Shown here one piece after another: positions 1-9,730 of a stretch of DNA of 9,730 nt. The translations under genes and the position numbers were made by a program. Source of the stretch: a virus. Its lineage: Duplodnaviria; Heunggongvirae; Uroviricota; Caudoviricetes. Location of the stretch: positions 1 to 9,730 of the IMG/VR virus record IMGVR_UViG_3300018478_000064. One strand, given 5' to 3'. Numbering within the stretch: the first letter of the stretch is position 1; every line of letters starts with the position of its first letter. The notes below the pieces were generated by a model. It had not been told where the DNA came from, searched no databases, and saw only the letters and a program-made list of their open reading frames with translations.

Positions 1-924
1 AACTCCATTAACTTTTATTTGAACTTCTCCTGATGCCGGAAGATTTACTTTCAAAGAGATAACCCATGGTTGTTTCGACGTATTTGTGTACGTGATTCCA
101 GGATACTTATCTGTGACGATCTGATACGTTTGATCTGTACCGATTAACTGAGACGCTGTTGCTAACGCGACAACACTGTCACTCTGTGCATGTCGCATAT
201 ATGGTTTTGTTGCATCATTTCTACTAAAACCAATGACACTGGCTCCATCACCAGTGACCATATCATCCAACTCTAGGTATTGGATAACATCATGAATACT
301 AGACTTACCGATGATATCTCGTCCTACCTTCGTAAAATCGGTAAGGTCTGCACTATTTTCATTGTTGAAATATGGTAGTTTATTAGTTGTTGCGATCAAA
401 TTCGCAAGAGCACTCAAAGTGTCATTCGAATCCTGCTTTTCATCTAAAGCAGTGCTTAATTCCTCTTGTGTAGTCAACAAAATTACAGTGTCTGTATCTT
501 GATGCCTGAAATACGGTTTATTTATAACACCTTTACTAAAACCAATGACATTGGCTCCATCACCAATAACAGCATTGGATATTCCAAGGTTTTCGAGAGC
601 TGTTTTCACCGTGCCGTCCGATTTGATATCGCCAAACGGATTCTTGCGGCTCAGGTATTCAACAGCAAACCCCGATCCCAGCAATTCAACAAAACCGGGC
701 AGATCACCATTATCAAGCACATCCCGTTGCGTTTTATCACTTACAAACTGGGCCAGAGCTGCAGCAATAAAGCTAGCCTGCCGAATAACCTTATTGACTT
801 GCGCACTGGAGGCTTTCCCTGCTGTAAATCCGGATAAAAGCGCGGGCAACGCTTCCCATTCCTCCTGCGATATAACATTGGCATTTCGATCCGTTGCAAA
901 CGCTTTAAAGTCATTTTTCGCCAT
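1..924 (-). CDS. Tail fibre protein, N-terminal part (P2 gpH / Mu gpS / lambda Stf family); 3' end lies beyond the window start
   Basis: Not in the ORF track because it has no stop in the window. Manual minus-strand translation from the ATG at 924..922 (TGATG overlap with the upstream gene stop) is open to position 1, about 308 codons, starting [33 protein letters not shown]. It contains ...[37 protein letters not shown], which closely resembles the conserved P2 gpH segment FPYFTGNDVASLATLTKVGRDILAKSTVAAVIEYLGL as I recall it. Position immediately after the J-like and gp48-like genes fits a fibre gene. Confidence 0.8.
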
Positions 925-1604
925 CAGAGTAATACTCCCCATGCTCCTACATCAAAACCACTGATGAATTCGTTATCCATATCAAAACCAAAAAATTTTG
1001 AGCCTTCCGATGGGGTTTCCACCGAAGGTGTTTCAATGCCACCCGCCCATACCCCGGCGGCTTTTACTGTGAGATACCCCTGTTTAATTGCCGCAATTAA
1101 CTCACGCGATACATCTGAAATATCAGTATCAGGAAAGACCCAGACCGATATCGTCATGTCCTGGTTATCGACTATCTGCATTCGCAGCCCGGATCCTGCT
1201 GTTGCCGCGTCAAGAATTGCCGGAAGCGAATCATTCCGTCCGTCCCAGTTATTAATCGCAATCTTCGCTTTAAGAATGACACGATAAGTTTCATCGCTGA
1301 GATACATGTATCCTGAATCAGGATCGTATGGTCCCTGCCATACCCCCTGATCATATCCAAGACCGTCGGTATCCCAGCTGAAATAGACACCTGAGATAGG
1401 CTGGCTGACAACACGGCTACGTCCGATCCACAATCCAAGAATGTCAAGTTGCACACCAACCGCAGAGTCAATATCAAATGCAGTAATCAGCCCTCTGGTG
1501 GCAGCCGCAACATCAATAAGTGGCCGGGTCATCAGATCAACATGCGCAAGAAATTTAGGTTTGGTGGCGTGGTAGTTCGTGATTAGTTCGGTGTATTTGC
1601 TCAT
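924..1604 (-). CDS. Baseplate/tail protein, Mu gp48 / P2 gpI-like (DUF2313, YmfQ-like)
   Basis: 226-aa ORF. Its start overlaps the stop of the upstream J-like gene (1601..1604) and its stop overlaps the fibre gene start. Size and position between the J-like gene and the fibre gene match Mu gp48 / P2 gpI. Family assigned from position and general sequence character, not from a search. Confidence 0.65.
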
Positions 1605-2800
1605 GACTCCACCGTTATAACGATATTTTCCGGGGTACAGGACGCAGATTCGTTGTATCTGATATCAATGTTTGATGACGACAAAGCCCCCGGGGATTTA
1701 CCAATCGTCAGTTCCTGAATATCGTAATAGCGTGCATTCCCGCCACTCACCACGCCAAGATTCGCCGGTGAGTAAATGCGACTTAAAAGGACCGAATCAC
1801 CGATCGTCAGACTATTGATATAGTCAGAAATAGCCTGCTGGATTTGCTGCCCTATCTGTGATGTATAACCCGTAAAAACTTTTAATTTAATCCGGGCATA
1901 AACAGGCACATCACTGGAACGCGAGAATTTGATTACATGGGGATTGCCGTATTTATCCGGAACCGTAACGGATGTTGTACCGTGAGTGGCTGTCCCCTGG
2001 CCTTTATTTCCTCTGATAGCCTGAGCAATATCCGTCACATCACCGCCATCCACAATTACAGCAACAGAGTGTGGCGGTAACCCGTTACCGTCCTCCGAGC
2101 CAGTATCGTTTTCATAGAGTTTGTGGCGGGTTACACCGGTAACATTAGAAACAGCACCATCCAGTGCTTCAAATGGGGTTATTGATGGCAACGCAACACT
2201 TTGCGACTGACGGATACGTAACTCCGCATCAGTTTCTGCCGGAGTGCCTACAGTAGCTGCAGCAGGATTGGTTACCGAAACCCAGCCACGGGTTGGCGTA
2301 TTAATTTCAGTGATAGTTCCAGCCAGCGCCGCCACTGCACCACTGACGGAACATGTTGCGGTCGCCATCACTGTACCATCCACGCCGACCACCACTGAAG
2401 CAGGCAAACGCCATATCACATTATTACCATCTTTCACGCTGCCATTAATGATGGTTGTTCCGGCAGTTCCTGTAAGAAGCAAATCAACCGTAGAGTTCGT
2501 CGCGCCTTTACGTGAAATACCATTTATTTTCACGTTACTGGTCAGTGCAGCCCCATAGCCGGTTGCCGGTGAAAAACAGTTGTAGACAGTTATCGCCGTA
2601 TTATTGGCATCATGAATCGCCAGCGCCATCAGAGCCACCATCTGGCCGTCTTTGCTGTCCGGTTCGAGGTAGGCATCACTACCATAAATCTGCTGAAAAT
2701 AGCTAATCAGGGTGCTGAGTATCGTCTGATAATCAGGCGCACTGATCCCCTCCGCGGTTACCTTTGCAGATAAACCGAGAGAATCAAGGTTCAGAGCCAT
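1601..2800 (-). CDS. Baseplate J-like protein (Mu gp47 / P2 gpJ / T4 gp6 family)
   Basis: 399-aa ORF whose start shares base 2800 with the stop of the upstream 117-aa gene. Gly/Thr/Val-rich beta-type composition and the position between the gp25-like and gp48-like genes are typical of baseplate J wedge proteins. Confidence 0.75.
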   Translation of the reverse strand: MALNLDSLGLSAKVTAEGISAPDYQTILSTLISYFQQIYGSDAYLEPDSKDGQMVALMALAIHDANNTAITVYNCFSPATGYGAALTSNVKINGISRKGATNSTVDLLLTGTAGTTIINGSVKDGNNVIWRLPASVVVGVDGTVMATATCSVSGAVAALAGTITEINTPTRGWVSVTNPAAATVGTPAETDAELRIRQSQSVALPSITPFEALDGAVSNVTGVTRHKLYENDTGSEDGNGLPPHSVAVIVDGGDVTDIAQAIRGNKGQGTATHGTTSVTVPDKYGNPHVIKFSRSSDVPVYARIKLKVFTGYTSQIGQQIQQAISDYINSLTIGDSVLLSRIYSPANLGVVSGGNARYYDIQELTIGKSPGALSSSNIDIRYNESASCTPENIVITVES

Positions 2801-3153
2801 TACGCCTCCGATGTAACAGTCGTTATTCCATAGAGAGTGTCGATTTCAGCGGAAAACATGACACGTCGGGTCGTGGTATCCACCGTCGTATTGAAAGAGA
2901 GGATTGATTTAACGCCCTGCGTTTCCAGAATGCGTTTTCTGATCGCTAGGTTGTAAGTTTCCGGTTTTTGCCTGCCCAGCACAGACTGGATCCACGGAGT
3001 CCCTTCGGTGGTGTCGAGAAACCATTGCCCATACCACAATTCGAATCGCGTTTTTACCGCCTGCGCCACGGCCTCCGGTGAGTTAATCAGCCAGGTGTCA
3101 TCACCGCTGCCAAAGGTGTAATCGCCATCGGCGTCTTCACGTCTGTATCGCAT
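2800..3153 (-). CDS. Small baseplate protein in the gpW / gp25 / Mu gp46 position (DUF2634 / XkdS-like)
   Basis: 117-aa ORF lying directly between the spike gene and the J-like gene; its start shares base 3153 with the spike gene stop. This position is held by the gp25-like wedge initiator in Mu, P2 and PBSX-type clusters. Confidence 0.6.
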   Translation of the reverse strand: MRYRREDADGDYTFGSGDDTWLINSPEAVAQAVKTRFELWYGQWFLDTTEGTPWIQSVLGRQKPETYNLAIRKRILETQGVKSILSFNTTVDTTTRRVMFSAEIDTLYGITTVTSEA

Positions 3154-3905
3154 CAGTTTACCCCGTCGGTACTGCTTCCACCGCGCTGAACACCGCCATG
3201 AGTGTGCGTATCATCGATTGGCTTGCCGTTAGCCTTCACGCTCCCCAAAAACTCAACAGCACCAGTGATTTTTGAAGCCACACCAGAAACAACAGACCCC
3301 ACCATGCCACCCATCCAGGTTAACAGACCATGAATGGTTACTTTCTCAGAAAAATCAGCCAGAGGGGCAACCACATCAAGACCACCCGGAGCGACAATTT
3401 TAATTTTCCTGGTATCAGGATTAAGCTCAAAATAGGTGCTGCCGTCGTCACTACGCAACTGTGTGGCACTGGTATTAATACCGCTAATCTTCCTCGCCTG
3501 CGACTGGGGACCGACAATACAAAACGCATCCGATAAATCATGCATTCTGTCATCGACTGGCTCCTGTATCCCGCCACTCTGCCACCAGAAATCAATACAA
3601 CGATCGGCAAAAACGACAAGACACTCATCCCCGGCTTTTACCGGAAAAGTCAACGTACAGCCTCCGCCGCGCGGGAATACCACTGGTACATCCACCAGCA
3701 GGGGTAATGTCGTCGACTGGTTGATTCCATTTGAGTCCGGCTCATAGCCTTTAATCGCAGGTTGAACAACCACTGTTACCGTGTCCGGATCAAATGACTG
3801 GACGATGCCGGGCATAGAAACACGCAGCGCCGACATGACAGAGCCAGCAAGTCTTACATCGGCCTGTTCTTTGCTACCAAGTTGAGCGCTTAAAGAAACG
3901 GGCAT
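3153..3905 (-). CDS. Baseplate central spike protein (P2 gpV / Mu gp45-like)
   Basis: 250-aa ORF. N-terminal region (PGIVQSFDPDTVTVVVQ...PVVFPRGGG...KAGDECLVVFADR) looks like the gpV OB-fold spike domain. C-terminus ends ...DDTHTHGGVQRGGSSTDGVN, with an HxH motif of the kind that coordinates iron at the gpV-type spike apex. A GGAGA Shine-Dalgarno sits about 7 nt upstream of the ATG. Confidence 0.75.
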   Translation of the reverse strand: MPVSLSAQLGSKEQADVRLAGSVMSALRVSMPGIVQSFDPDTVTVVVQPAIKGYEPDSNGINQSTTLPLLVDVPVVFPRGGGCTLTFPVKAGDECLVVFADRCIDFWWQSGGIQEPVDDRMHDLSDAFCIVGPQSQARKISGINTSATQLRSDDGSTYFELNPDTRKIKIVAPGGLDVVAPLADFSEKVTIHGLLTWMGGMVGSVVSGVASKITGAVEFLGSVKANGKPIDDTHTHGGVQRGGSSTDGVN

Positions 3906-3925
3906 TCATATGTCTCCAGAAAGTA

Positions 3926-3949
3926 AAAAACCCGCCGGGTGGCGGGTTC
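3926..3949 (-). terminator. Rho-independent terminator downstream of the 79-aa membrane protein gene
   Basis: Plus-strand text AAAAAACCCGCCGGGTGGCGGGTT. On the minus strand this reads AACCCGCCacccGGCGGGTTTTTT: a 6-8 bp GC stem, 4-nt loop and T6 tract. It lies between the 79-aa ORF stop (3965) and the spike gene start (3905). Hand-counted coordinates, +/-2 bp. Confidence 0.6.
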
Positions 3950-3964
3950 ATTATTGAAGTTTCA

Positions 3965-4204
3965 TTACTGCTTGTTTGCTTCTAACGCTTCAGCTATTCG
4001 GCGAAGATACTCATTGTTTTTAAATGAAACCATGATGCACTCAAAGAATATTCGGCAAAATACAGCACATAACAAAAGCACTAAAGCGCCAGCAGCCTTC
4101 CCATTAACAAACGTTATAATGGCGGCAACAACCAGAAGTAACATTGTGATGCCATACAGAACGTTGATGATTTTTGGAGTTATTAATTTATCAAATCCGA
4201 ACAT
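3965..4204 (-). CDS. Small inner-membrane protein, two predicted transmembrane helices and a charged C-terminal tail; accessory (moron) gene of unknown function
   Basis: 79-aa ORF MFGFDKLITPKIINVLYGITMLLLVVAAIITFVNGKAAGALVLLLCAVFCRIFFECIMVSFKNNEYLRRIAEALEANKQ. Two hydrophobic stretches of about 21 residues separated by a short NGKAAG loop, then a charged tail. An AAGGAA Shine-Dalgarno sits about 8 nt upstream of the ATG, a candidate promoter lies upstream and the terminator lies downstream. The region is visibly AT-rich. Confidence 0.6.
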   Translation of the reverse strand: MFGFDKLITPKIINVLYGITMLLLVVAAIITFVNGKAAGALVLLLCAVFCRIFFECIMVSFKNNEYLRRIAEALEANKQ

Positions 4205-4240
4205 GCGACAAATTCCTTATCGTGAAAGTAGAAGTATCAC

Positions 4241-4268
4241 ATTATAATTACGGGTGATTAATCAACAA
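4241..4268 (-). promoter_or_regulatory. Candidate sigma70 promoter for the 79-aa membrane protein gene
   Basis: On the minus strand: -35-like TTGTTG (plus 4263-4268), 16-nt spacer, perfect -10 TATAAT (plus 4241-4246), about 35 nt upstream of the ATG at 4204. A 10-bp perfect palindrome TGATTAATCA (plus about 4255-4264) overlaps the -35/spacer. Hand-counted coordinates. Confidence 0.35.
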
Positions 4269-4343
4269 TCTTTTTGCATGGAAAGGAACCGATGATTTTC
4301 GGCGCATCCATGCTGTTCTGCAGAAGCTGGACGCCAATGTGAT

Positions 4344-4679
4344 TCACTTCACCTTCCGACAATCATACGTCCAGAACTCCCGAGGCTCGTCCATATTTTT
4401 GCGGATAACTTCAACGTTGAGGATCGGCTTGCCATTTCTGGCCACAAAATCCATCCCTAACCAACGCCCATTACCCGGAATCATCCATTGGATGTTCACA
4501 TTGTCATAATCACCTTCCTGTTTGAGAAAGATGATTTTCTGTGTCTCCGGTTTCTGTCCATTAATCCTTGCAAGTCCGTCTTGCGCTTTCCAGTTGATCG
4601 TAAATGGTCCGCAACCGGTATCAGCAAAGGAAATGAAGGAGATACAGACAAGTAAAACTGTCAACAATAGTCTTTTCAT
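4344..4679 (-). CDS. Sec-exported periplasmic protein (signal peptide, two Cys), unknown function; accessory gene inside the tail operon
   Basis: 111-aa ORF. N-terminus MKRLLLTVLLVCISFISFA / DTG has a positive n-region, a 15-residue hydrophobic core and a SFA signal-peptidase I site. There is no lipobox (D at -3 relative to Cys). The mature protein has Cys near each end (DTGC...TYDC). Its start overlaps the hub gene stop as ATGA (4676-4679). Confidence 0.7.
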   Translation of the reverse strand: MKRLLLTVLLVCISFISFADTGCGPFTINWKAQDGLARINGQKPETQKIIFLKQEGDYDNVNIQWMIPGNGRWLGMDFVARNGKPILNVEVIRKNMDEPREFWTYDCRKVK

Positions 4680-5707
4680 GTGTATTTCGCCGCATCAATC
4701 CCTTTCGAGTTAAGCAATTCTTTGCCACCTTTAGCCAGGCAAAGCAGGTCCATATACCACGCCTGCCCTCGGGTGTCGCCAGTATAATCAATGCTGCCCA
4801 CAATGTAATCACCGTCAGTATTAATGCTGGCAGGCTGTGACATGCCTGGCAGACCGTTAACGTAGAGATTACCGTCGCTTTCAGACTCATCCAGTCGTGC
4901 TGGCGATTTCGCTACCTGGTCATTACTCAAAGAGGCACGGTATACAGATGCCTGATCCAGACGAATAAGCCCACCGAGCTTAATATTTGGATTAATCAGA
5001 CATCTGACATTTACGCCAGCTCCCATCGTCTGCTGTGGCATACCGATAAGCCCGGTGTTAGCATTCAACACTGTAGCAACACCAATATATTTATCTTCAG
5101 GAACAATATTTACCAGATTATTTTCATACCACCAGTTAGCTTTACACTGCCCTGCGATATGATTCATCAACCTTGATGTGTTTTGATAAACAACGCGACC
5201 CCGGGGAAATACCGTTTCCGGCATGTCAGGAACTGCGCCGGATTCGATGCCATATGGTTCGAATGATTTCATACCCAGACTGAAAAGATCGCTGTACTTC
5301 CAGCCAGCTGCCACTGTTGTTTTCACACTTGCGTTCAGATGGCCTTCCCAGCTGTCAATACACTGCAACATGATCCAACTGTCTGTGGCATTATCTTTAC
5401 CAGTGACAGTAAAACGGATATCTCCATTGAATATCATACCAACGTTTTCATCAGGATAATTACCTGCTGCATCCGGTTGCCCCTTGTATCCGGCAATAAC
5501 CTGTATACGCGAAAACTCCTTCTGCATAATCCGGTTCTGAGTGGTAGGAGACAGGTTATAAACCTTAAAATTTCCAACGAATCCATTGAATATGGTCGCA
5601 GGCATTTTCTGAATATTGAAAGTGACTTTAAGCTCAGAAATTTTTATCCCGTCGCCCTTATCATCAACAAGCAATAATTCAAAGTGACGCATCCAGTTTT
5701 TCGACAT
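4676..5707 (-). CDS. Baseplate hub-like protein (tentatively P2 gpD / Mu gp44 / T4 gp27-like)
   Basis: 343-aa ORF directly upstream, in transcription order, of the accessory insertion and the spike gene. The N-terminal segment HFELLLVDDKGDGIKISELKVTFNIQK resembles in style the late-control-D N-terminus (LISLTLTDNRGFEADQLDIELDD in P2 gpD). The functional call is positional and tentative. Confidence 0.5.
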   Translation of the reverse strand: MSKNWMRHFELLLVDDKGDGIKISELKVTFNIQKMPATIFNGFVGNFKVYNLSPTTQNRIMQKEFSRIQVIAGYKGQPDAAGNYPDENVGMIFNGDIRFTVTGKDNATDSWIMLQCIDSWEGHLNASVKTTVAAGWKYSDLFSLGMKSFEPYGIESGAVPDMPETVFPRGRVVYQNTSRLMNHIAGQCKANWWYENNLVNIVPEDKYIGVATVLNANTGLIGMPQQTMGAGVNVRCLINPNIKLGGLIRLDQASVYRASLSNDQVAKSPARLDESESDGNLYVNGLPGMSQPASINTDGDYIVGSIDYTGDTRGQAWYMDLLCLAKGGKELLNSKGIDAAKYT

Positions 5708-5709
5708 TG

Positions 5710-6012
5710 TTACTCCGTGAAAACATAGAGGTGTGAGAGCGTTCCAAGATCGAATTGCGTCGGATTCTCCTGCCCTGCCACGTCGCAGAGCACCACCAGA
5801 GAAAAACCCAGATCCATATATCGATACTGTGCCAGCAGGTCAGCCCCCGTAATCATCGGTATACCTGATATAATGGCGGAGCCATTGCTGTCAGCAAGAT
5901 CCAGAACCCAGTACTCGCCTCGCCAGATGACAGACAGGTGATAAACCGAACCGTTAATTGTGGTGGCAAAAGTCTGATTGTCAGCAACCAGTGGGATTTC
6001 TACGGCTTCCAT
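5710..6012 (-). CDS. Small phage tail-operon protein, unknown function
   Basis: 100-aa ORF tightly packed between the 217-aa ORF and the hub-like gene (2-bp gap to the hub start). It has its own Shine-Dalgarno (GGAAGGTG) overlapping the upstream stop codon. Confidence 0.6.
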   Translation of the reverse strand: MEAVEIPLVADNQTFATTINGSVYHLSVIWRGEYWVLDLADSNGSAIISGIPMITGADLLAQYRYMDLGFSLVVLCDVAGQENPTQFDLGTLSHLYVFTE

Positions 6013-6015
6013 GAA

Positions 6016-6669
6016 TCACCTTCCCAGAAATAAATTGCTCAAATACCCATCAACAGTGGAGATACCTTCTTGCGCCATCTGTGGCAGCGATTTCAGAATG
6101 GAATTATTCGGCGGCACCGTTGTTTTGGTGCCTGTATTCTGCACAGCAGACGTTCCGACTCCCTCGGTCATATTGTTTTTCGGGGCAACCCTGACTGACT
6201 GCGTGGAGGTAATAATTACTTCCCTGAGGGTAAGTGTCGCCAGAAGCACATTTTCACTACTCTTATCGGTCGTGACCTCCAGCGTTTTTATCAACATATT
6301 GTTGTAAATACGCTTGCCGGTTGTCACATCGAAAGGAATACGATTCCGCTGCAGGTTAAGCAGTTCCTGATACAGTTCTTTCGGGCTCAGCCCCAGTAAA
6401 CTGGTAGCAGTCAGGTTACTGGCAAAATCAAGCAGCGATCCGCCTCCGGAAAAACCGGTTTCCATCACAACCTCAGAAGGGCGCCTGAATGCGTGTTCTG
6501 ATATGTAACCAGCGCCCTCACCACTGGCACCAGCATTCGTGGGCTGTTCAACCGGATGTTCCGTAATTTCCAGGGCGTCAGTGTGCTTTTCGGTAATAAC
6601 CACATCAGGAATAATGATTCCTATTGAGCGGGTTCGCTGCTGCAGTAAAACAGATAAAAAGTCCATCAC
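6016..6669 (-). CDS. Phage tail protein of unknown family immediately downstream of the tape measure gene (in the position held by Mu gp43 or a distal-tail protein)
   Basis: 217-aa ORF whose start overlaps the tape measure stop as ATGA (6666-6669). No motif I can confidently assign; no LysM signature seen. Confidence 0.6.
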   Translation of the reverse strand: MMDFLSVLLQQRTRSIGIIIPDVVITEKHTDALEITEHPVEQPTNAGASGEGAGYISEHAFRRPSEVVMETGFSGGGSLLDFASNLTATSLLGLSPKELYQELLNLQRNRIPFDVTTGKRIYNNMLIKTLEVTTDKSSENVLLATLTLREVIITSTQSVRVAPKNNMTEGVGTSAVQNTGTKTTVPPNNSILKSLPQMAQEGISTVDGYLSNLFLGR

Positions 6670-8672
6670 GCAGGCCCTTTCAATTGCTGTACCGCCCTGG
6701 CATTTACAGCCCCCTGCTTGTCAGCAATCAGATTAGCCGCCTCCTGAGGGTTGTTAACTCCATGAACATTTATAACAGTCTGCTGGTTAAGGCTGCCAGC
6801 GGCGGCCTGATACGCCAGCGGGCTGTTCCAGTTTGAATAACCTTCTTTGCGCGCCATCGACTGCATCAATGCTCCCATAGTCCGGGGATCTGTAAGATTC
6901 AATATTGCATTCGGTGATACTCCCATCCATTTCGCAACATCCTGTGCATACTTTTTCGGATCGTTGTTATCACCTGCCGGGGCCCAGGTACTGACAATAT
7001 CCTGAATAGTCTGTAATGCCCGTCCGGTTGTTTTCCCGGTAAAGTAACGCATGAGCTGGTTTTTCATCGCCTCCCAGCCCTCAAGCGCTGATTCGAAAAA
7101 CCGGAACCCTTTACCGCTCACCGGGCGAATGTTCCCGGGGTTATTGTTGCGATCAGCAAGAGTGCCGCCGCCGGGGATGTCGGGCTGGACGTTGGAGCCA
7201 TGCACTACACCGTTACTCTGTCCCTGCCGGATAACTTTACCGGGTCCCCCGTGCAACCAGTCCATCCACGCAGGCCATTCACGGACCTCACTGACATCCC
7301 TGCGTCCGATATCTGTTTTTATACCAATAGCAGCCAGCGTGTCGCCGATAATTCGCTTCGTATACCTCAGTGAAGATTTTGCGCTATCGGCAATATTTTC
7401 TCTGTCACTAACAATATAGCCCGCGTAAAGCGCCCACAATTTAAGCCAGGGTGGGACCGGTAAACCTGATATTTTTCCGAAAGCCCCCAGAACCCTGGAT
7501 ACCCAGACACCCGCGATGAATGTACCGAGGATTTCCAGTGCATTTTGCCAGCCGCCAACACCATCTTTTAGTTCCAGAAGGTGATCACGAAGCCAGGTGA
7601 TCGCATCCTTCGCTTTATCTATTGCCGGTTGCCATTTTTCCCAGTCGATAAGACTGTTACCGCCTTCTTTCCATGTTTTGTAGTCTTCCCACAAGAGACC
7701 GAGAGCCACGATCAGACCGGTAATCAGCCCTATAGGTGACATCCAGAAAGTAGAGTTAAGTATCCGCATGGCGACAACCAGACCGCCGATAACCTCTATC
7801 AGGGTTTTCGTTTCGGCATCCAGTTTCCCCCACCACTCGATGATATCTCCGACACCATCGACTATCCGAAATGCTACCCGCCCGACTATCTCACCCAGCC
7901 AGAGGATCCCCTTTATGACCTTTGTGATGGTGACTTCAATTTTGGGAAAATTTTCAATTATCTTTTTGCGCAGGTTATCAATCTGCCCCGCCAGTCCGTC
8001 CGCAAGATTCGATCCGATTTTGTCCCGCGCCATCCCGGCCATTTCACCGAGCGATTTCAGTGAGGTCATAAACCGGTTTGACGATAAGGCAGCCTGATCG
8101 GCATTAAATCCGATCGCTTTCACCATTTCTGAATACTGAGCGCTGAACTGCCCCACTCCGCGACGCATAGCCATCAGGGTATTTTCGTCAATGCCCAGCA
8201 TCTGCGCATACTGGTTAGCCCGGTAATACGGCATGCTGCTGAGTTTCTGTCCAACGCCCGTAAAGATAGCAGCCATGTCACGCATGTTACCGCTGGCATC
8301 ACGGGTCTGTACGCCCAGGCGATTCAGAAAGCCTTCTGCTCCGGGATTGTTACGAATAAACCGGGAGAGGCTTTCCAGAGAAGATCGCGCAGCGTCCACG
8401 CTGCCGCCAACCTGCGAAACCGCATAGCCAATAGACTGAATTCCCTGGACTGTCGCGCCGGTGCGCTGTGACGCCCAGTAAAGATTATCCAGACCGGAGG
8501 CGATCTTAGCCGTGAAGGCCACCACGGACAGCGCGGCTCCTTCAACGGCCAGCCCCATTTTGATGACATTTGCAGTTGTACCGGCGAGGACAGAACCGAA
8601 TTTTTTCGCTCCTGCATCATCCACACTGAAGCCAAGCGAGACGAGGAAATCTTTAATAGTTTCAGCGTTCAT
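6666..8672 (-). CDS. Tail tape measure protein
   Basis: Largest ORF in the window. The track starts it at a TTG (8693, 675 aa). The ATG at 8672, preceded by GGAGAGAGG about 5 nt upstream, is the more likely start (about 668 aa). Ala/Gly/Ser-rich helical N-terminal region, a central hydrophobic block (LIEVIGGLVVAMRILNSTFWMSPIGLITGLIVALGLLW) and a position right after a frameshifted chaperone gene are all typical of tape measure proteins. Confidence 0.9.
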   Translation of the reverse strand: MNAETIKDFLVSLGFSVDDAGAKKFGSVLAGTTANVIKMGLAVEGAALSVVAFTAKIASGLDNLYWASQRTGATVQGIQSIGYAVSQVGGSVDAARSSLESLSRFIRNNPGAEGFLNRLGVQTRDASGNMRDMAAIFTGVGQKLSSMPYYRANQYAQMLGIDENTLMAMRRGVGQFSAQYSEMVKAIGFNADQAALSSNRFMTSLKSLGEMAGMARDKIGSNLADGLAGQIDNLRKKIIENFPKIEVTITKVIKGILWLGEIVGRVAFRIVDGVGDIIEWWGKLDAETKTLIEVIGGLVVAMRILNSTFWMSPIGLITGLIVALGLLWEDYKTWKEGGNSLIDWEKWQPAIDKAKDAITWLRDHLLELKDGVGGWQNALEILGTFIAGVWVSRVLGAFGKISGLPVPPWLKLWALYAGYIVSDRENIADSAKSSLRYTKRIIGDTLAAIGIKTDIGRRDVSEVREWPAWMDWLHGGPGKVIRQGQSNGVVHGSNVQPDIPGGGTLADRNNNPGNIRPVSGKGFRFFESALEGWEAMKNQLMRYFTGKTTGRALQTIQDIVSTWAPAGDNNDPKKYAQDVAKWMGVSPNAILNLTDPRTMGALMQSMARKEGYSNWNSPLAYQAAAGSLNQQTVINVHGVNNPQEAANLIADKQGAVNARAVQQLKGPA

Positions 8673-9302
8673 TATCCTCTCTCCATTTCTCAATGCGCCG
8701 CTGGTTATCCGCTTTTACCGCCAGATGGTCATTCAAGAGAGCAATGTCGTACAAATCGACAGAGCCATCTTTAAGTGCTGTATAAGGAATTAACCCGGCG
8801 TCAACCGGATTGAGAAGGTAGGACAGCCCGTCCGGCAGGCTGTTAAACGTCAGCCCTGTTGCAGGCTCTGCGTCGTGCTGGTAAGGGGTGTAGGCAAAAA
8901 ATTTCCCAGCGAATCGGCGACCACCCGCGCCACCAGATGAAGCATGACCAGCAGGTCAATATCATCAAACATCAGTTCGCCCCGGGTAAATACCGGCACC
9001 CATCCGTCCATATGACGCCGCGATACCACCGCAAGACAGGGATGAATAATCGCATCGGTGTCATCTTCGGTCAGGGAAGACAGTTCCTCAGCGATACGCG
9101 GGAGCATGGTTTCAAACACCGGTTTTAACTGCTCGAATTTCACGGTGTCGATTTTGCCGTCAGCAGGCAAACGGGAGCGAATGCTCCCGAAATCTGACAT
9201 CATTCCTGCCAGCACCGGCAGAAGTTTGCGGGTCACTTTCAGCTGGTCAAAAACGCTGAGTTTTGCCACGCGATATTTCACGCCTTTGATTTCGAATTCC
9301 AT
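8662..9302 (-). CDS. Predicted -1 frameshift fusion product of the tail assembly chaperone (gpGT-like, about 200 aa)
   Basis: My hand translation of the minus strand finds the -1 frame open from the slippery site, through the whole 157-bp gap, to a TGA at about 8664..8662 that overlaps the first codons of the tape measure gene. About 80 codons, ...KFFAYTPYQHDAEPATGLTFNSLPDGLSYLLNPVDAGLIPYTALKDGSVDLYDIALLNDHLAVKADNQRRIEKWREDNER. Confidence 0.5.
8850..9302 (-). CDS. Tail assembly chaperone (gpG-like, short product)
   Basis: 150-aa acidic ORF immediately upstream of the tape measure gene, with a slippery sequence near its 3' end and an open -1 frame downstream. Confidence 0.7.
   Translation of the reverse strand: MEFEIKGVKYRVAKLSVFDQLKVTRKLLPVLAGMMSDFGSIRSRLPADGKIDTVKFEQLKPVFETMLPRIAEELSSLTEDDTDAIIHPCLAVVSRRHMDGWVPVFTRGELMFDDIDLLVMLHLVARVVADSLGNFLPTPLTSTTQSLQQG
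8896..8907 (-). other. Candidate -1 programmed ribosomal frameshift (slippery) site
   Basis: Minus-strand text CTG GGA AAT TTT TTG in the chaperone frame contains G_GGA_AAT (same class as lambda G_GGA_AAG), immediately followed by A_AAT_TTT and T_TTT_TTG, all fitting the X_XXY_YYZ rule. Hand-counted coordinates. Confidence 0.5.
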
Positions 9303-9305
9303 CTA

Positions 9306-9728
9306 TTAAAACTCCCCGAGAACCTGGTCAATCTTGCCGCAGTCAAACACCCACGGCATCGTATTACCGGTTTTAGCGTTGGCGTTATCCGGTTGTTTCT
9401 GGAACGCAACACTGCGTGCCGTGATGATGTCGCCGCTGACCTTGTTGCGGATCACGATAACGTTATTCCCCCATGTGGCAGAAGACTGGCTCTGTGCGTT
9501 ATACGCCAGCGACAATTTTTTATTTGTCGGTGATGTCTTCAGAAGGTTAACGGTAATCGTCCCGCTTTTATCTGCATGGAGACTGTGCATCACTTCGCCA
9601 TCAGCACCGATAGTCATGGTGTTTTTAGGACCGCCCATCGCAACCACAATCCCCTCTTCAGAACTTGCCGAACCGTACCCGAGGTCAATCGAACCGGTCG
9701 GCCCGGTCAGCGTCGCAGTGACATCCAT
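9306..9728 (-). CDS. Phage tail structural protein, possibly tail tube; N-terminus may lie beyond the window end
   Basis: 140-aa ORF whose first ATG is 2 nt from the window end, so the true start and any ribosome-binding site are not visible. Beta-rich composition. Its stop is 4 bp from the chaperone start. In Mu/P2-type operons the tube gene precedes the chaperone. Confidence 0.4.
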   Translation of the reverse strand: MDVTATLTGPTGSIDLGYGSASSEEGIVVAMGGPKNTMTIGADGEVMHSLHADKSGTITVNLLKTSPTNKKLSLAYNAQSQSSATWGNNVIVIRNKVSGDIITARSVAFQKQPDNANAKTGNTMPWVFDCGKIDQVLGEF

Positions 9729-9730
9729 AA

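Follow-up and report, generated by a model that had tools for sequence, protein, structure and literature searches.

The lipoproteins Llp of phage T5, Cor of phi80 and N15 and Ltp of TP-J34 act by masking a host receptor or by binding the tape measure. In several phages the exclusion proteins are located in the cell envelope; gp15 of HK97 is a moron inside the tail operon, in a unit that a terminator closes, and its action depends on features of the incoming tail (PMC3594210). Spackle (gp61.3) of T4, the product of an early gene, is an alpha-helical bundle with a cleavable signal peptide and one disulfide, which acts in the periplasm on the tail tip, where it binds the lysozyme domain of the spike gp5 (PMC7677548). 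Here we describe a small gene (positions 4344-4679, - strand) in a stretch of viral DNA of 9,730 nucleotides, positions 1 to 9,730 of IMG/VR record IMGVR_UViG_3300018478_000064, which is referred to below as the window. The - strand of the window holds the tail and baseplate module of a temperate myophage, and the small gene starts where the baseplate hub gene ends. Its product is predicted to be a Sec-exported periplasmic beta-barrel of SEN34-like myophages, and by analogy with the systems above we propose, tentatively, that it may act as a superinfection-exclusion-type factor.

Like Spackle, the small protein has a predicted cleavable signal peptide and a predicted disulfide, and the periplasmic role proposed for it would be analogous. 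Unlike Spackle it is predicted to be all-beta, it lies in a late or prophage context, as far as timing can be judged from gene position, and there is no similarity between the two in sequence or structure. While the target of Spackle is the lysozyme domain of the spike, the only candidate hydrolase here is the C-terminus of the tape measure. The initial annotation had compared the protein with T4 Sp on the grounds that it was encoded directly beside the spike gene. A remnant, a DUF4282 gene and a terminator, 438 nt in total, in fact intervene, and it is the hub that is the constant neighbour; with an all-beta fold, no Spackle-like match, a place in a late operon and a spike that lacks a lysozyme domain, the comparison is not supported. 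In T4 itself sp is not known to be adjacent to gene 5.

With gp15 of HK97 the small protein shares its size, its targeting to the envelope and its place within a late tail operon of the lambdoid type, in a unit closed by a terminator. However, gp15 belongs to the YebO family and is located in the inner membrane, whereas the window protein is predicted to be soluble and periplasmic, and the window gene has a GC content indistinguishable from that of the hub, is coupled to a structural gene and is lineage-wide rather than sporadic. Llp, Cor and Ltp are likewise small exported phage proteins encoded near tail or receptor-binding genes, and a lipoprotein-fusion relative of the small protein exists, but the window protein has no lipobox and no sequence similarity to them. 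The small protein lies outside the Spackle, lysozyme-inhibitor and lipoprotein-exclusion families, the defining features of which it lacks. In kind its gene resembles the prophage envelope-protein genes embedded in tail operons; what is unusual for such genes is its lineage-wide conservation, its coupling to the hub, the exchange of a cassette that includes the hub end and the occurrence of rare arrays.

A small exported protein encoded at the hub stop codon

The elements of the small gene are as follows.

4344..4679, - strand: small exported-protein gene, 111 amino acids (aa), stop codon included (phrog_3443; RefSeq 'STY1065/STY2022 family')
4623..4679, - strand: signal peptide, codons 1-19, MKRLLLTVLLVCISFISFA, with a signal peptidase I cut predicted after S-F-A (from the n/h/c design and the ratio of non-synonymous to synonymous substitution rates, dN/dS)
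4347..4622, - strand: mature domain, 92 aa, predicted small all-beta barrel (AlphaFold2 model, alignments, per-column entropy)
4611-4613 and 4359-4361, - strand: invariant cysteine codons, C23 and C107 respectively (alignments)
4676..4679, - strand: ATGA overlap of the small-gene start with the hub stop, for translational coupling (sequence)

By sequence the small protein belongs to an already catalogued family, phrog_3443, or 'STY1065/STY2022 family phage-derived protein' in RefSeq. The match to the phrog_3443 profile extends over residues 5-111 (E=2.1e-42), a word-indexed search returned 84 homologous clusters, from Enterobacterales only, and dN/dS for the whole gene against close alleles is 0.06-0.13; 4344-4679 is thus a genuine coding gene, far beyond chance. 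Translation of the - strand gives a precursor that consists of MKRLLLTVLLVCISFISFA followed by DTGCGPF...WTYDCRKVK. The + strand reads 'tcat' at 4676-4679, that is ATGA on the - strand, with the ATG at 4679-4677 and the TGA of the hub at 4678-4676, so the overlap of start and stop that had been noted initially is borne out. Most homologous loci show either a comparable overlap (GTGA, TAATG) or a gap of only a few nucleotides. An alternative start that removes the signal peptide was also looked for: the next in-frame ATG is codon 66, which would remove Cys23 and half of the fold, and in the IMG/VR comparison, which took the best 80 loci, the homologue starts directly at the hub end in 79.

The N-terminus of the protein has a short n-region (MKR, charge +2), a 15-residue hydrophobic core, with a best 10-residue Kyte-Doolittle window of 3.37, and S-F-A at positions -3 to -1. 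Cutting after Ala19 would leave a mature protein of 92 residues with cysteines at mature positions 4 and 88 (C23 and C107 of the precursor), both of which are invariant across the family alignments. Neither a lipobox nor a twin-arginine motif is present in the N-terminus. The residues preceding Cys23 are D-T-G and those preceding Cys12 are L-L-V, with no L-[AS]-[GA]-C anywhere in the window protein, and the reading of Cys23 as a lipoprotein cysteine was rejected for lack of a lipobox. The 52 intact copies examined, which came from 49 loci, all retain the architecture of a positive start, hydrophobic core and small-x-small motif, followed within a few residues by an invariant Cys-Gly. Their best Kyte-Doolittle windows range from 1.6 to 3.4, the sole value below 2.16 stemming from a misplaced start call in the fourth copy of the Pseudescherichia vulneris locus (L016).

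In pairwise comparisons of close alleles dN/dS is 0.25-2.3 for the signal peptide against 0.04-0.13 for the mature part, within which mature residues 20-84 give 0.04-0.11 and the C-terminal third gives about 0-0.03. A sequence that drifts ahead of a domain under purifying selection is what would be expected of a cleaved targeting peptide on a constrained domain. Among the cluster representatives there are two lipoproteins, with the lipobox LSGC or LVSC, that have the small-protein domain at the C-terminus. One such protein, of 292 aa with the lipobox LSGC, occupies the identical post-hub slot of an IMG/VR prophage contig (L053:6001-6879) and has an N-terminal domain of about 190 aa, without a match in Pfam, fused to the phrog_3443-family domain. 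From these sequence features the small protein is almost certainly exported via Sec to the periplasm and processed by signal peptidase I. The classical cleavable signal peptide and the mature protein of about 92 residues with a cysteine near each end, both put forward in the initial annotation, are upheld.

The AlphaFold2 model, built on a 67-sequence alignment, is an all-beta small barrel (predicted local distance difference test score, pLDDT, 92.8; predicted template-modelling score, pTM, 0.80), the first and last strands of which contain Cys4 and Cys88 of the mature protein, respectively. In this model a Cys23-Cys107 disulfide probably closes the barrel, which together with the conservation of the pair fits the disulfide-stabilised periplasmic fold proposed earlier. 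By per-column entropy residues 8-19 are the most variable part of the mature domain and the C-terminal third is nearly invariant. The structure prediction and comparison that had been suggested as a check gave a confident barrel but no specific structural relative: the matches to it are weak and generic, none is Spackle-like, and the lysozyme-inhibitor families Ivy and MliC/PliC as well as PliG and PliI match neither by profile nor by structure.

The family phrog_3443 belongs to SEN34-like temperate myophages that infect Enterobacterales, and it is narrow, since an exhaustive profile search of 1.84 billion representatives found only 55 members. SEN34 is a temperate phage that combines a lambdoid genome with myovirus morphology (PMC5261728). 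An E. coli allele 63% identical to the window protein carries the RefSeq family name and has equal length, the same post-hub slot, a signal peptide and the two cysteines. Relatives are encoded on 504 IMG/VR contigs, and of 5426 complete E. coli genomes 14 have the window allele itself at 99% identity or more, five of these and no others also sharing the downstream region of the window. Pfam and NCBIfam gave no functional match for the small protein. The sole line in NCBIfam, for the N-terminus of a type IX secretion system (T9SS) sortase, scored 15.9 bits where the cutoff is 40 and is an artefact of the signal peptide, and two large repeat proteins from the profile search (P0130 and P0135) were judged spurious, their low-complexity immunoglobulin-like repeats being responsible. 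A literature search on the locus tags STY1065 and STY2022 returned no paper on the family.

Two records call for separate comment. The locus in a record titled Chryseobacterium sp. 18061 (L030) is near-identical to those of Enterobacter and Citrobacter prophages and probably reflects assembly contamination or mislabelling. In E. coli R1 a prophage with this exact locus ends by pphA (L001:1383-1898, beside pphA/yebW), with truncated tail-fibre-assembly and helix-turn-helix pseudogenes, and this copy may be partly degraded. The sequenced strain IGC_RcoliRes_1.1 has the identical locus as well.

Accessory status, allele exchange and arrays

Homologues of the hub were found in 140 phage records and the small gene in only 20. 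The hub and spike genes of birk, a lytic Rosemountvirus, adjoin each other with nothing between them; in the isolated Hafnia phage yong1, the hub of which is 47% identical, an unrelated cytoplasmic-looking gene fills the slot; and in Burkholderia phage Magia the slot holds an opposite-strand gene that encodes a different signal-peptide protein. Two further loci (L044 and L048) have other exported proteins in the slot and retain only a 24-residue C-terminal remnant of the family. Because it is absent, replaced or, as described below, multiplied in phages with a related hub and spike, the small gene, which is lineage-wide and tied to the hub, is accessory and unlikely to be structural.

This bears on whether the protein might instead take part in tail assembly or in the virion, with the hydrophobic N-terminus as an anchor or uncleaved segment or with the small protein fused to the hub by a frameshift. 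The fixed post-hub position, the frequent coupling, the GC content shared with the hub and a divergence that runs roughly in step with it would all suit such a part, as would a purifying selection as strong as in many structural genes. A virion protein would, on the other hand, be expected wherever the hub-spike module occurs, which is not so for a gene found in 20 records against 140 and missing from yong1 and the Rosemountvirus; nor does replacement by unrelated exported proteins in L044 and L048, multiplication to about seven copies in another locus (L018), an invariant pair of cysteines or a lipoprotein variant accord with it. A fusion by programmed frameshift was rejected, as the frame upstream of the ATG is open for just five codons in the window, no slippery site is conserved and the array copies have their own starts. 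A role in the virion thus seems very improbable. The initial view, that this is an exported protein and not a virion part assembled in the cytoplasm, agrees with the retained signal peptide, the lipoprotein variant and the absence, replacement or multiplication of the gene in relatives.

Comparison of the window with a prophage of E. coli E9 suggests how the gene varies. The flanks are 98-100% identical, with the tape measure and spike at 98-99%, whereas the small proteins are only 63% identical in amino acids. The divergence begins about 40 nt ahead of the hub stop and ends near codon 85 of the small gene, taking in its first 250 nt or so, such that the last 12 or so codons of the hub, which are variable, are exchanged along with the 5' two-thirds of the small gene. 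In O55:H7 DEC5A the window allele is followed by Phd/Doc, that is by other downstream cargo. Across genomes the type of hub tail and the type of small protein travel together, which could come from physical linkage alone.

Displaced copies leave traces. The following element lies immediately downstream of the small gene in the window.

4261..4344, - strand: remnant of the 3' end of a second allele, NHIGVQLLQNSMDAPKIIGSFPCKKIVD, 28 residues, with its stop at 4258-4260; matches the vB_EcoM-683R1-type C-terminus

As the remnant encodes the C-terminus of a 683R1-type allele, an earlier copy was displaced. Family remnants were also found elsewhere (L044, L048 and L049) and a fragment is present in 10 of the 80 IMG/VR loci. 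In Pseudescherichia vulneris (L016:600-2850) four diverged copies stand in tandem between hub and spike, the second to fourth each preceded by a hub 3' fragment of about 200 nt with a differing C-terminal tail. The corresponding region of Serratia aquatilis (L018:850-5750) has about seven intact copies and one broken, in an array that is interrupted by an insertion sequence (IS) transposase (3721-4929, - strand). Diversifying, arms-race selection on the small protein was considered and dropped, as pairwise dN/dS points to purifying selection on the mature domain; the exchange of alleles by recombination was retained.

The hub-spike junction and expression of the small gene

The remaining features of the tail module are listed below; in window order the spike is followed by W-like, J-like and DUF2612 genes.

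6666-8693, - strand: tape measure
6016-6669, - strand: Dit-like protein
5710-6012, - strand: plug
4676..5707, - strand: baseplate hub, 343 aa (PF22759 E217_GP41, E=1.4e-7; phrog_196 'baseplate hub', E=5e-80)
4781..4809, - strand: promoter-like site ATTACA-17-TATACT within the 3' end of the hub, some 100 nt upstream of the small-gene ATG (9/12, weak)
3965..4204, - strand: DUF4282 gene, 79-aa predicted membrane protein (PF14110, E=1.2e-10)
3928..3949, - strand: intrinsic-terminator hairpin GAACCCGCCACCCGGCGGGTTT and T-run, 23 nt before the spike ATG
3153..3905, - strand: membrane-puncturing spike, 250 aa (PF18352 N-terminal domain, E=1.3e-44; GpV apex motif)

The order of hub, small gene, variable stretch and spike is seen in about 40 of the 44 loci of the genome comparison, which took one representative genome per species. 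Among the IMG/VR loci the hub is directly upstream of the small gene in 79-80 of 80, and the distance from the hub end to the spike start is 407-2754 nt (median 1269). The stretch between carries Phd/Doc pairs, signal-peptide proteins and membrane proteins, the last represented in the window by DUF4282. Most of this cargo is unannotated, only Fic/Doc and an OB-fold ('tRNA_anti-like') domain being recognised. Phd/Doc toxin-antitoxin pairs lie at the junction in L014, L021 and L061, a secreted OB-fold protein in L027 and L031, and a second family of small signal-peptide proteins in L008, L017, L026 and L035. Recurrent two-gene sets in L019, L028, L033, L048 and L053 look like HEPN pairs by eye and have no profile match.

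Of 56 related loci, 50 have a canonical intrinsic terminator (AACCCGC-loop-GCGGGTT and T-run) that precedes the spike ATG by about 20 nt and so falls midway through the late tail operon. It is missing from the phages birk and Magia, neither of which has a cargo island, and also from four homologous loci, those of Pantoea stewartii (L039, L040 and L043) and Apirhabdus (L049). Where the small gene is the sole gene of the island (L012 and L013) the terminator is still present; in the window it comes after DUF4282 and not after the small gene. The features expected of a moron are shared unevenly by the small gene, in that a terminator of its own and absence from relatives were found but a deviant GC content was not (0.443 against 0.449 for the hub). 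The DUF4282 gene has a GC content of 0.375, with 0.485 for the window as a whole, and is in itself a textbook moron, of low GC content, preceded by a perfect -10 hexamer (TATAAT, 4241-4246) and followed by a strong terminator; it looks recently acquired. DUF4282 and the periplasmic small protein loosely recall the Imm and Sp pair of T4. The hub-spike junction, in which the first gene and the closing terminator are constant, is a cargo hotspot that offers a handy place to mine for envelope-acting or defence genes.

Since the small gene is coupled to the hub, its arrangement implies that the protein would be made with the late tail operon during late gene expression, as the initial annotation had also supposed. 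Expression in the prophage state, from the promoter-like site in the hub 3' end, is possible on the sequence. This site lies within the hub codons for ...DYIVGSIDYTG... and scores at the same position in 16 of the 44 loci, while 3% of control windows do so, although the loci are homologous and not independent; it is absent from the hub fragments of L016. An internal promoter as a general feature was not upheld for these reasons and the site is kept as a weak lead. By analogy with lambda Q, we infer that late transcription would read through the terminator before the spike, whereas transcripts in the lysogen would stop there, which is how the moron for gp15 of HK97 has been described (PMC3594210).

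The tape measure and spike are relevant to a second possible function, namely that the small protein inhibits a hydrolase of the incoming tail as Spackle does, so preventing lysis from without as well as superinfection. The enzyme in question would be the C-terminus of the tape measure and not the spike, in which a Pfam scan found no lysozyme domain. The last 190 or so residues of the tape measure (6666-7250, - strand) resemble the solved structure of a phage endolysin (7q47, E=1.6e-5) as well as the N-terminus of a phage Gp29 (9vvp, E=1.7e-6), and RefSeq annotators call its homologues 'lytic transglycosylase', so that this region is probably a tail peptidoglycan hydrolase. Spackle provides a precedent for the inhibition of a tail enzyme, and the bacterial lysozyme inhibitors Ivy, MliC and PliC, along with PliG and PliI, are small beta-rich periplasmic proteins (PMC7677548). 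However, the 63%-identical alleles of the small protein sit alongside tape measures and spikes that are 98-99% identical, which makes a tightly matched inhibitor of either unlikely, and the small protein persists in many loci in which the tape measure beyond residue 380 or so is unrelated to that of the window. An inhibitor of a tail muramidase is therefore unlikely, and a weaker model than exclusion at the tail tip.

Candidate functions of the small protein

The tentative assignment to superinfection exclusion is favoured because the gene is strictly associated with one type of tail, comes first in an island whose cargo is of envelope and defence-like kinds, is exchanged and occasionally stacked as alleles, and has precedents in Spackle and gp15 of HK97. 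It would be made whenever the late tail operon is translated, and maybe also from the prophage via the weak promoter-like site at the hub 3' end. After export and cleavage of the signal peptide the protein would wait in the periplasm, where it would bind the tip complex (the hub, the spike or the end of the tape measure) of an incoming tail of the same type. Binding would stop penetration or the delivery of DNA into lysogenic or already infected cells. Phages exchange its alleles in a cassette made up of the last 12 or so codons of the hub and the 5' two-thirds of the small gene, with displaced copies persisting as remnants or tandem arrays.

Several observations weigh against an exclusion factor. 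The small protein has no homology to any known defence protein, and PADLOC gave no defence match for it. The literature on exclusion, morons, hub hotspots and SEN34 provided background only, with nothing on the phrog_3443 family. The GC content matches that of the hub, so the small gene is not a classical recently acquired moron, and the promoter-like site, itself weak, occurs in no more than about a third of loci. Arrays are rare, in two of 44 species genomes and none of the 80 IMG/VR loci. The dN/dS of 0.04-0.13 for the mature domain gives no sign of the positive selection that arms races often produce in exclusion or immunity proteins.

The protein might instead be directed at the host. It would then be an envelope factor of lysogenic conversion that binds a periplasmic or outer-membrane component of the host, or a small ligand, to the benefit of the lysogen or of progeny release and with no action on incoming tails; it might for example mask a receptor as Cor and Llp do, inhibit a host or animal enzyme, or sequester a ligand in the manner of calycin- or avidin-type barrels. 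The near-invariance of the C-terminal third and of several surface-type residues, from Escherichia to Photorhabdus, would be in keeping with a host target that is conserved, a site of action close to the membrane is suggested by the lipoprotein fusion, and the island holds other host-acting cargo and ends in a terminator as morons do. Yet so strict a tie to one tail type and hub would not be expected of a general host factor, given that the other cargo of the island assorts freely; the structural matches are weak and generic, and the window protein is without the lipobox of Cor, Llp and Ltp. We regard these host-directed roles as rather doubtful.

A more specific form of the exclusion proposal can be drawn from the cassettes. 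The C-terminal tail of the hub and the small protein might constitute a matched, immunity-like pair, in which the small protein would recognise the tip of incoming tails with cognate or rival hub variants and stop them in the periplasm. Here the parallel is with the orphan immunity arrays of contact-dependent growth inhibition (CDI), Rhs and type VI secretion systems (T6SS), in which a variable C-terminus and an adjacent small exported protein likewise move as a cassette and displaced ones pile up downstream; but the hub tail is only about 12 residues long and has no toxin domain, arrays are rare, and the linkage may be purely physical. Such a matched pair is quite unlikely. That swapped and stacked cassettes, as in the arrays of four and about seven copies, would widen the range of tails excluded is, on the same reading, a similarly long shot. 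If the pair were real it would be a polymorphic self/non-self system within a phage baseplate, organised like the CDI, Rhs and T6SS orphan immunity arrays.

Should the small protein act in superinfection exclusion, as tentatively proposed, it would represent a new structural class of periplasmic exclusion factor, a beta-barrel unlike the helical Spackle of T4. It would be carried by widespread prophages of E. coli, Salmonella and Klebsiella, as reflected in the 504 IMG/VR contigs, and would bear on host range in phage therapy and on competition between prophages in the gut.

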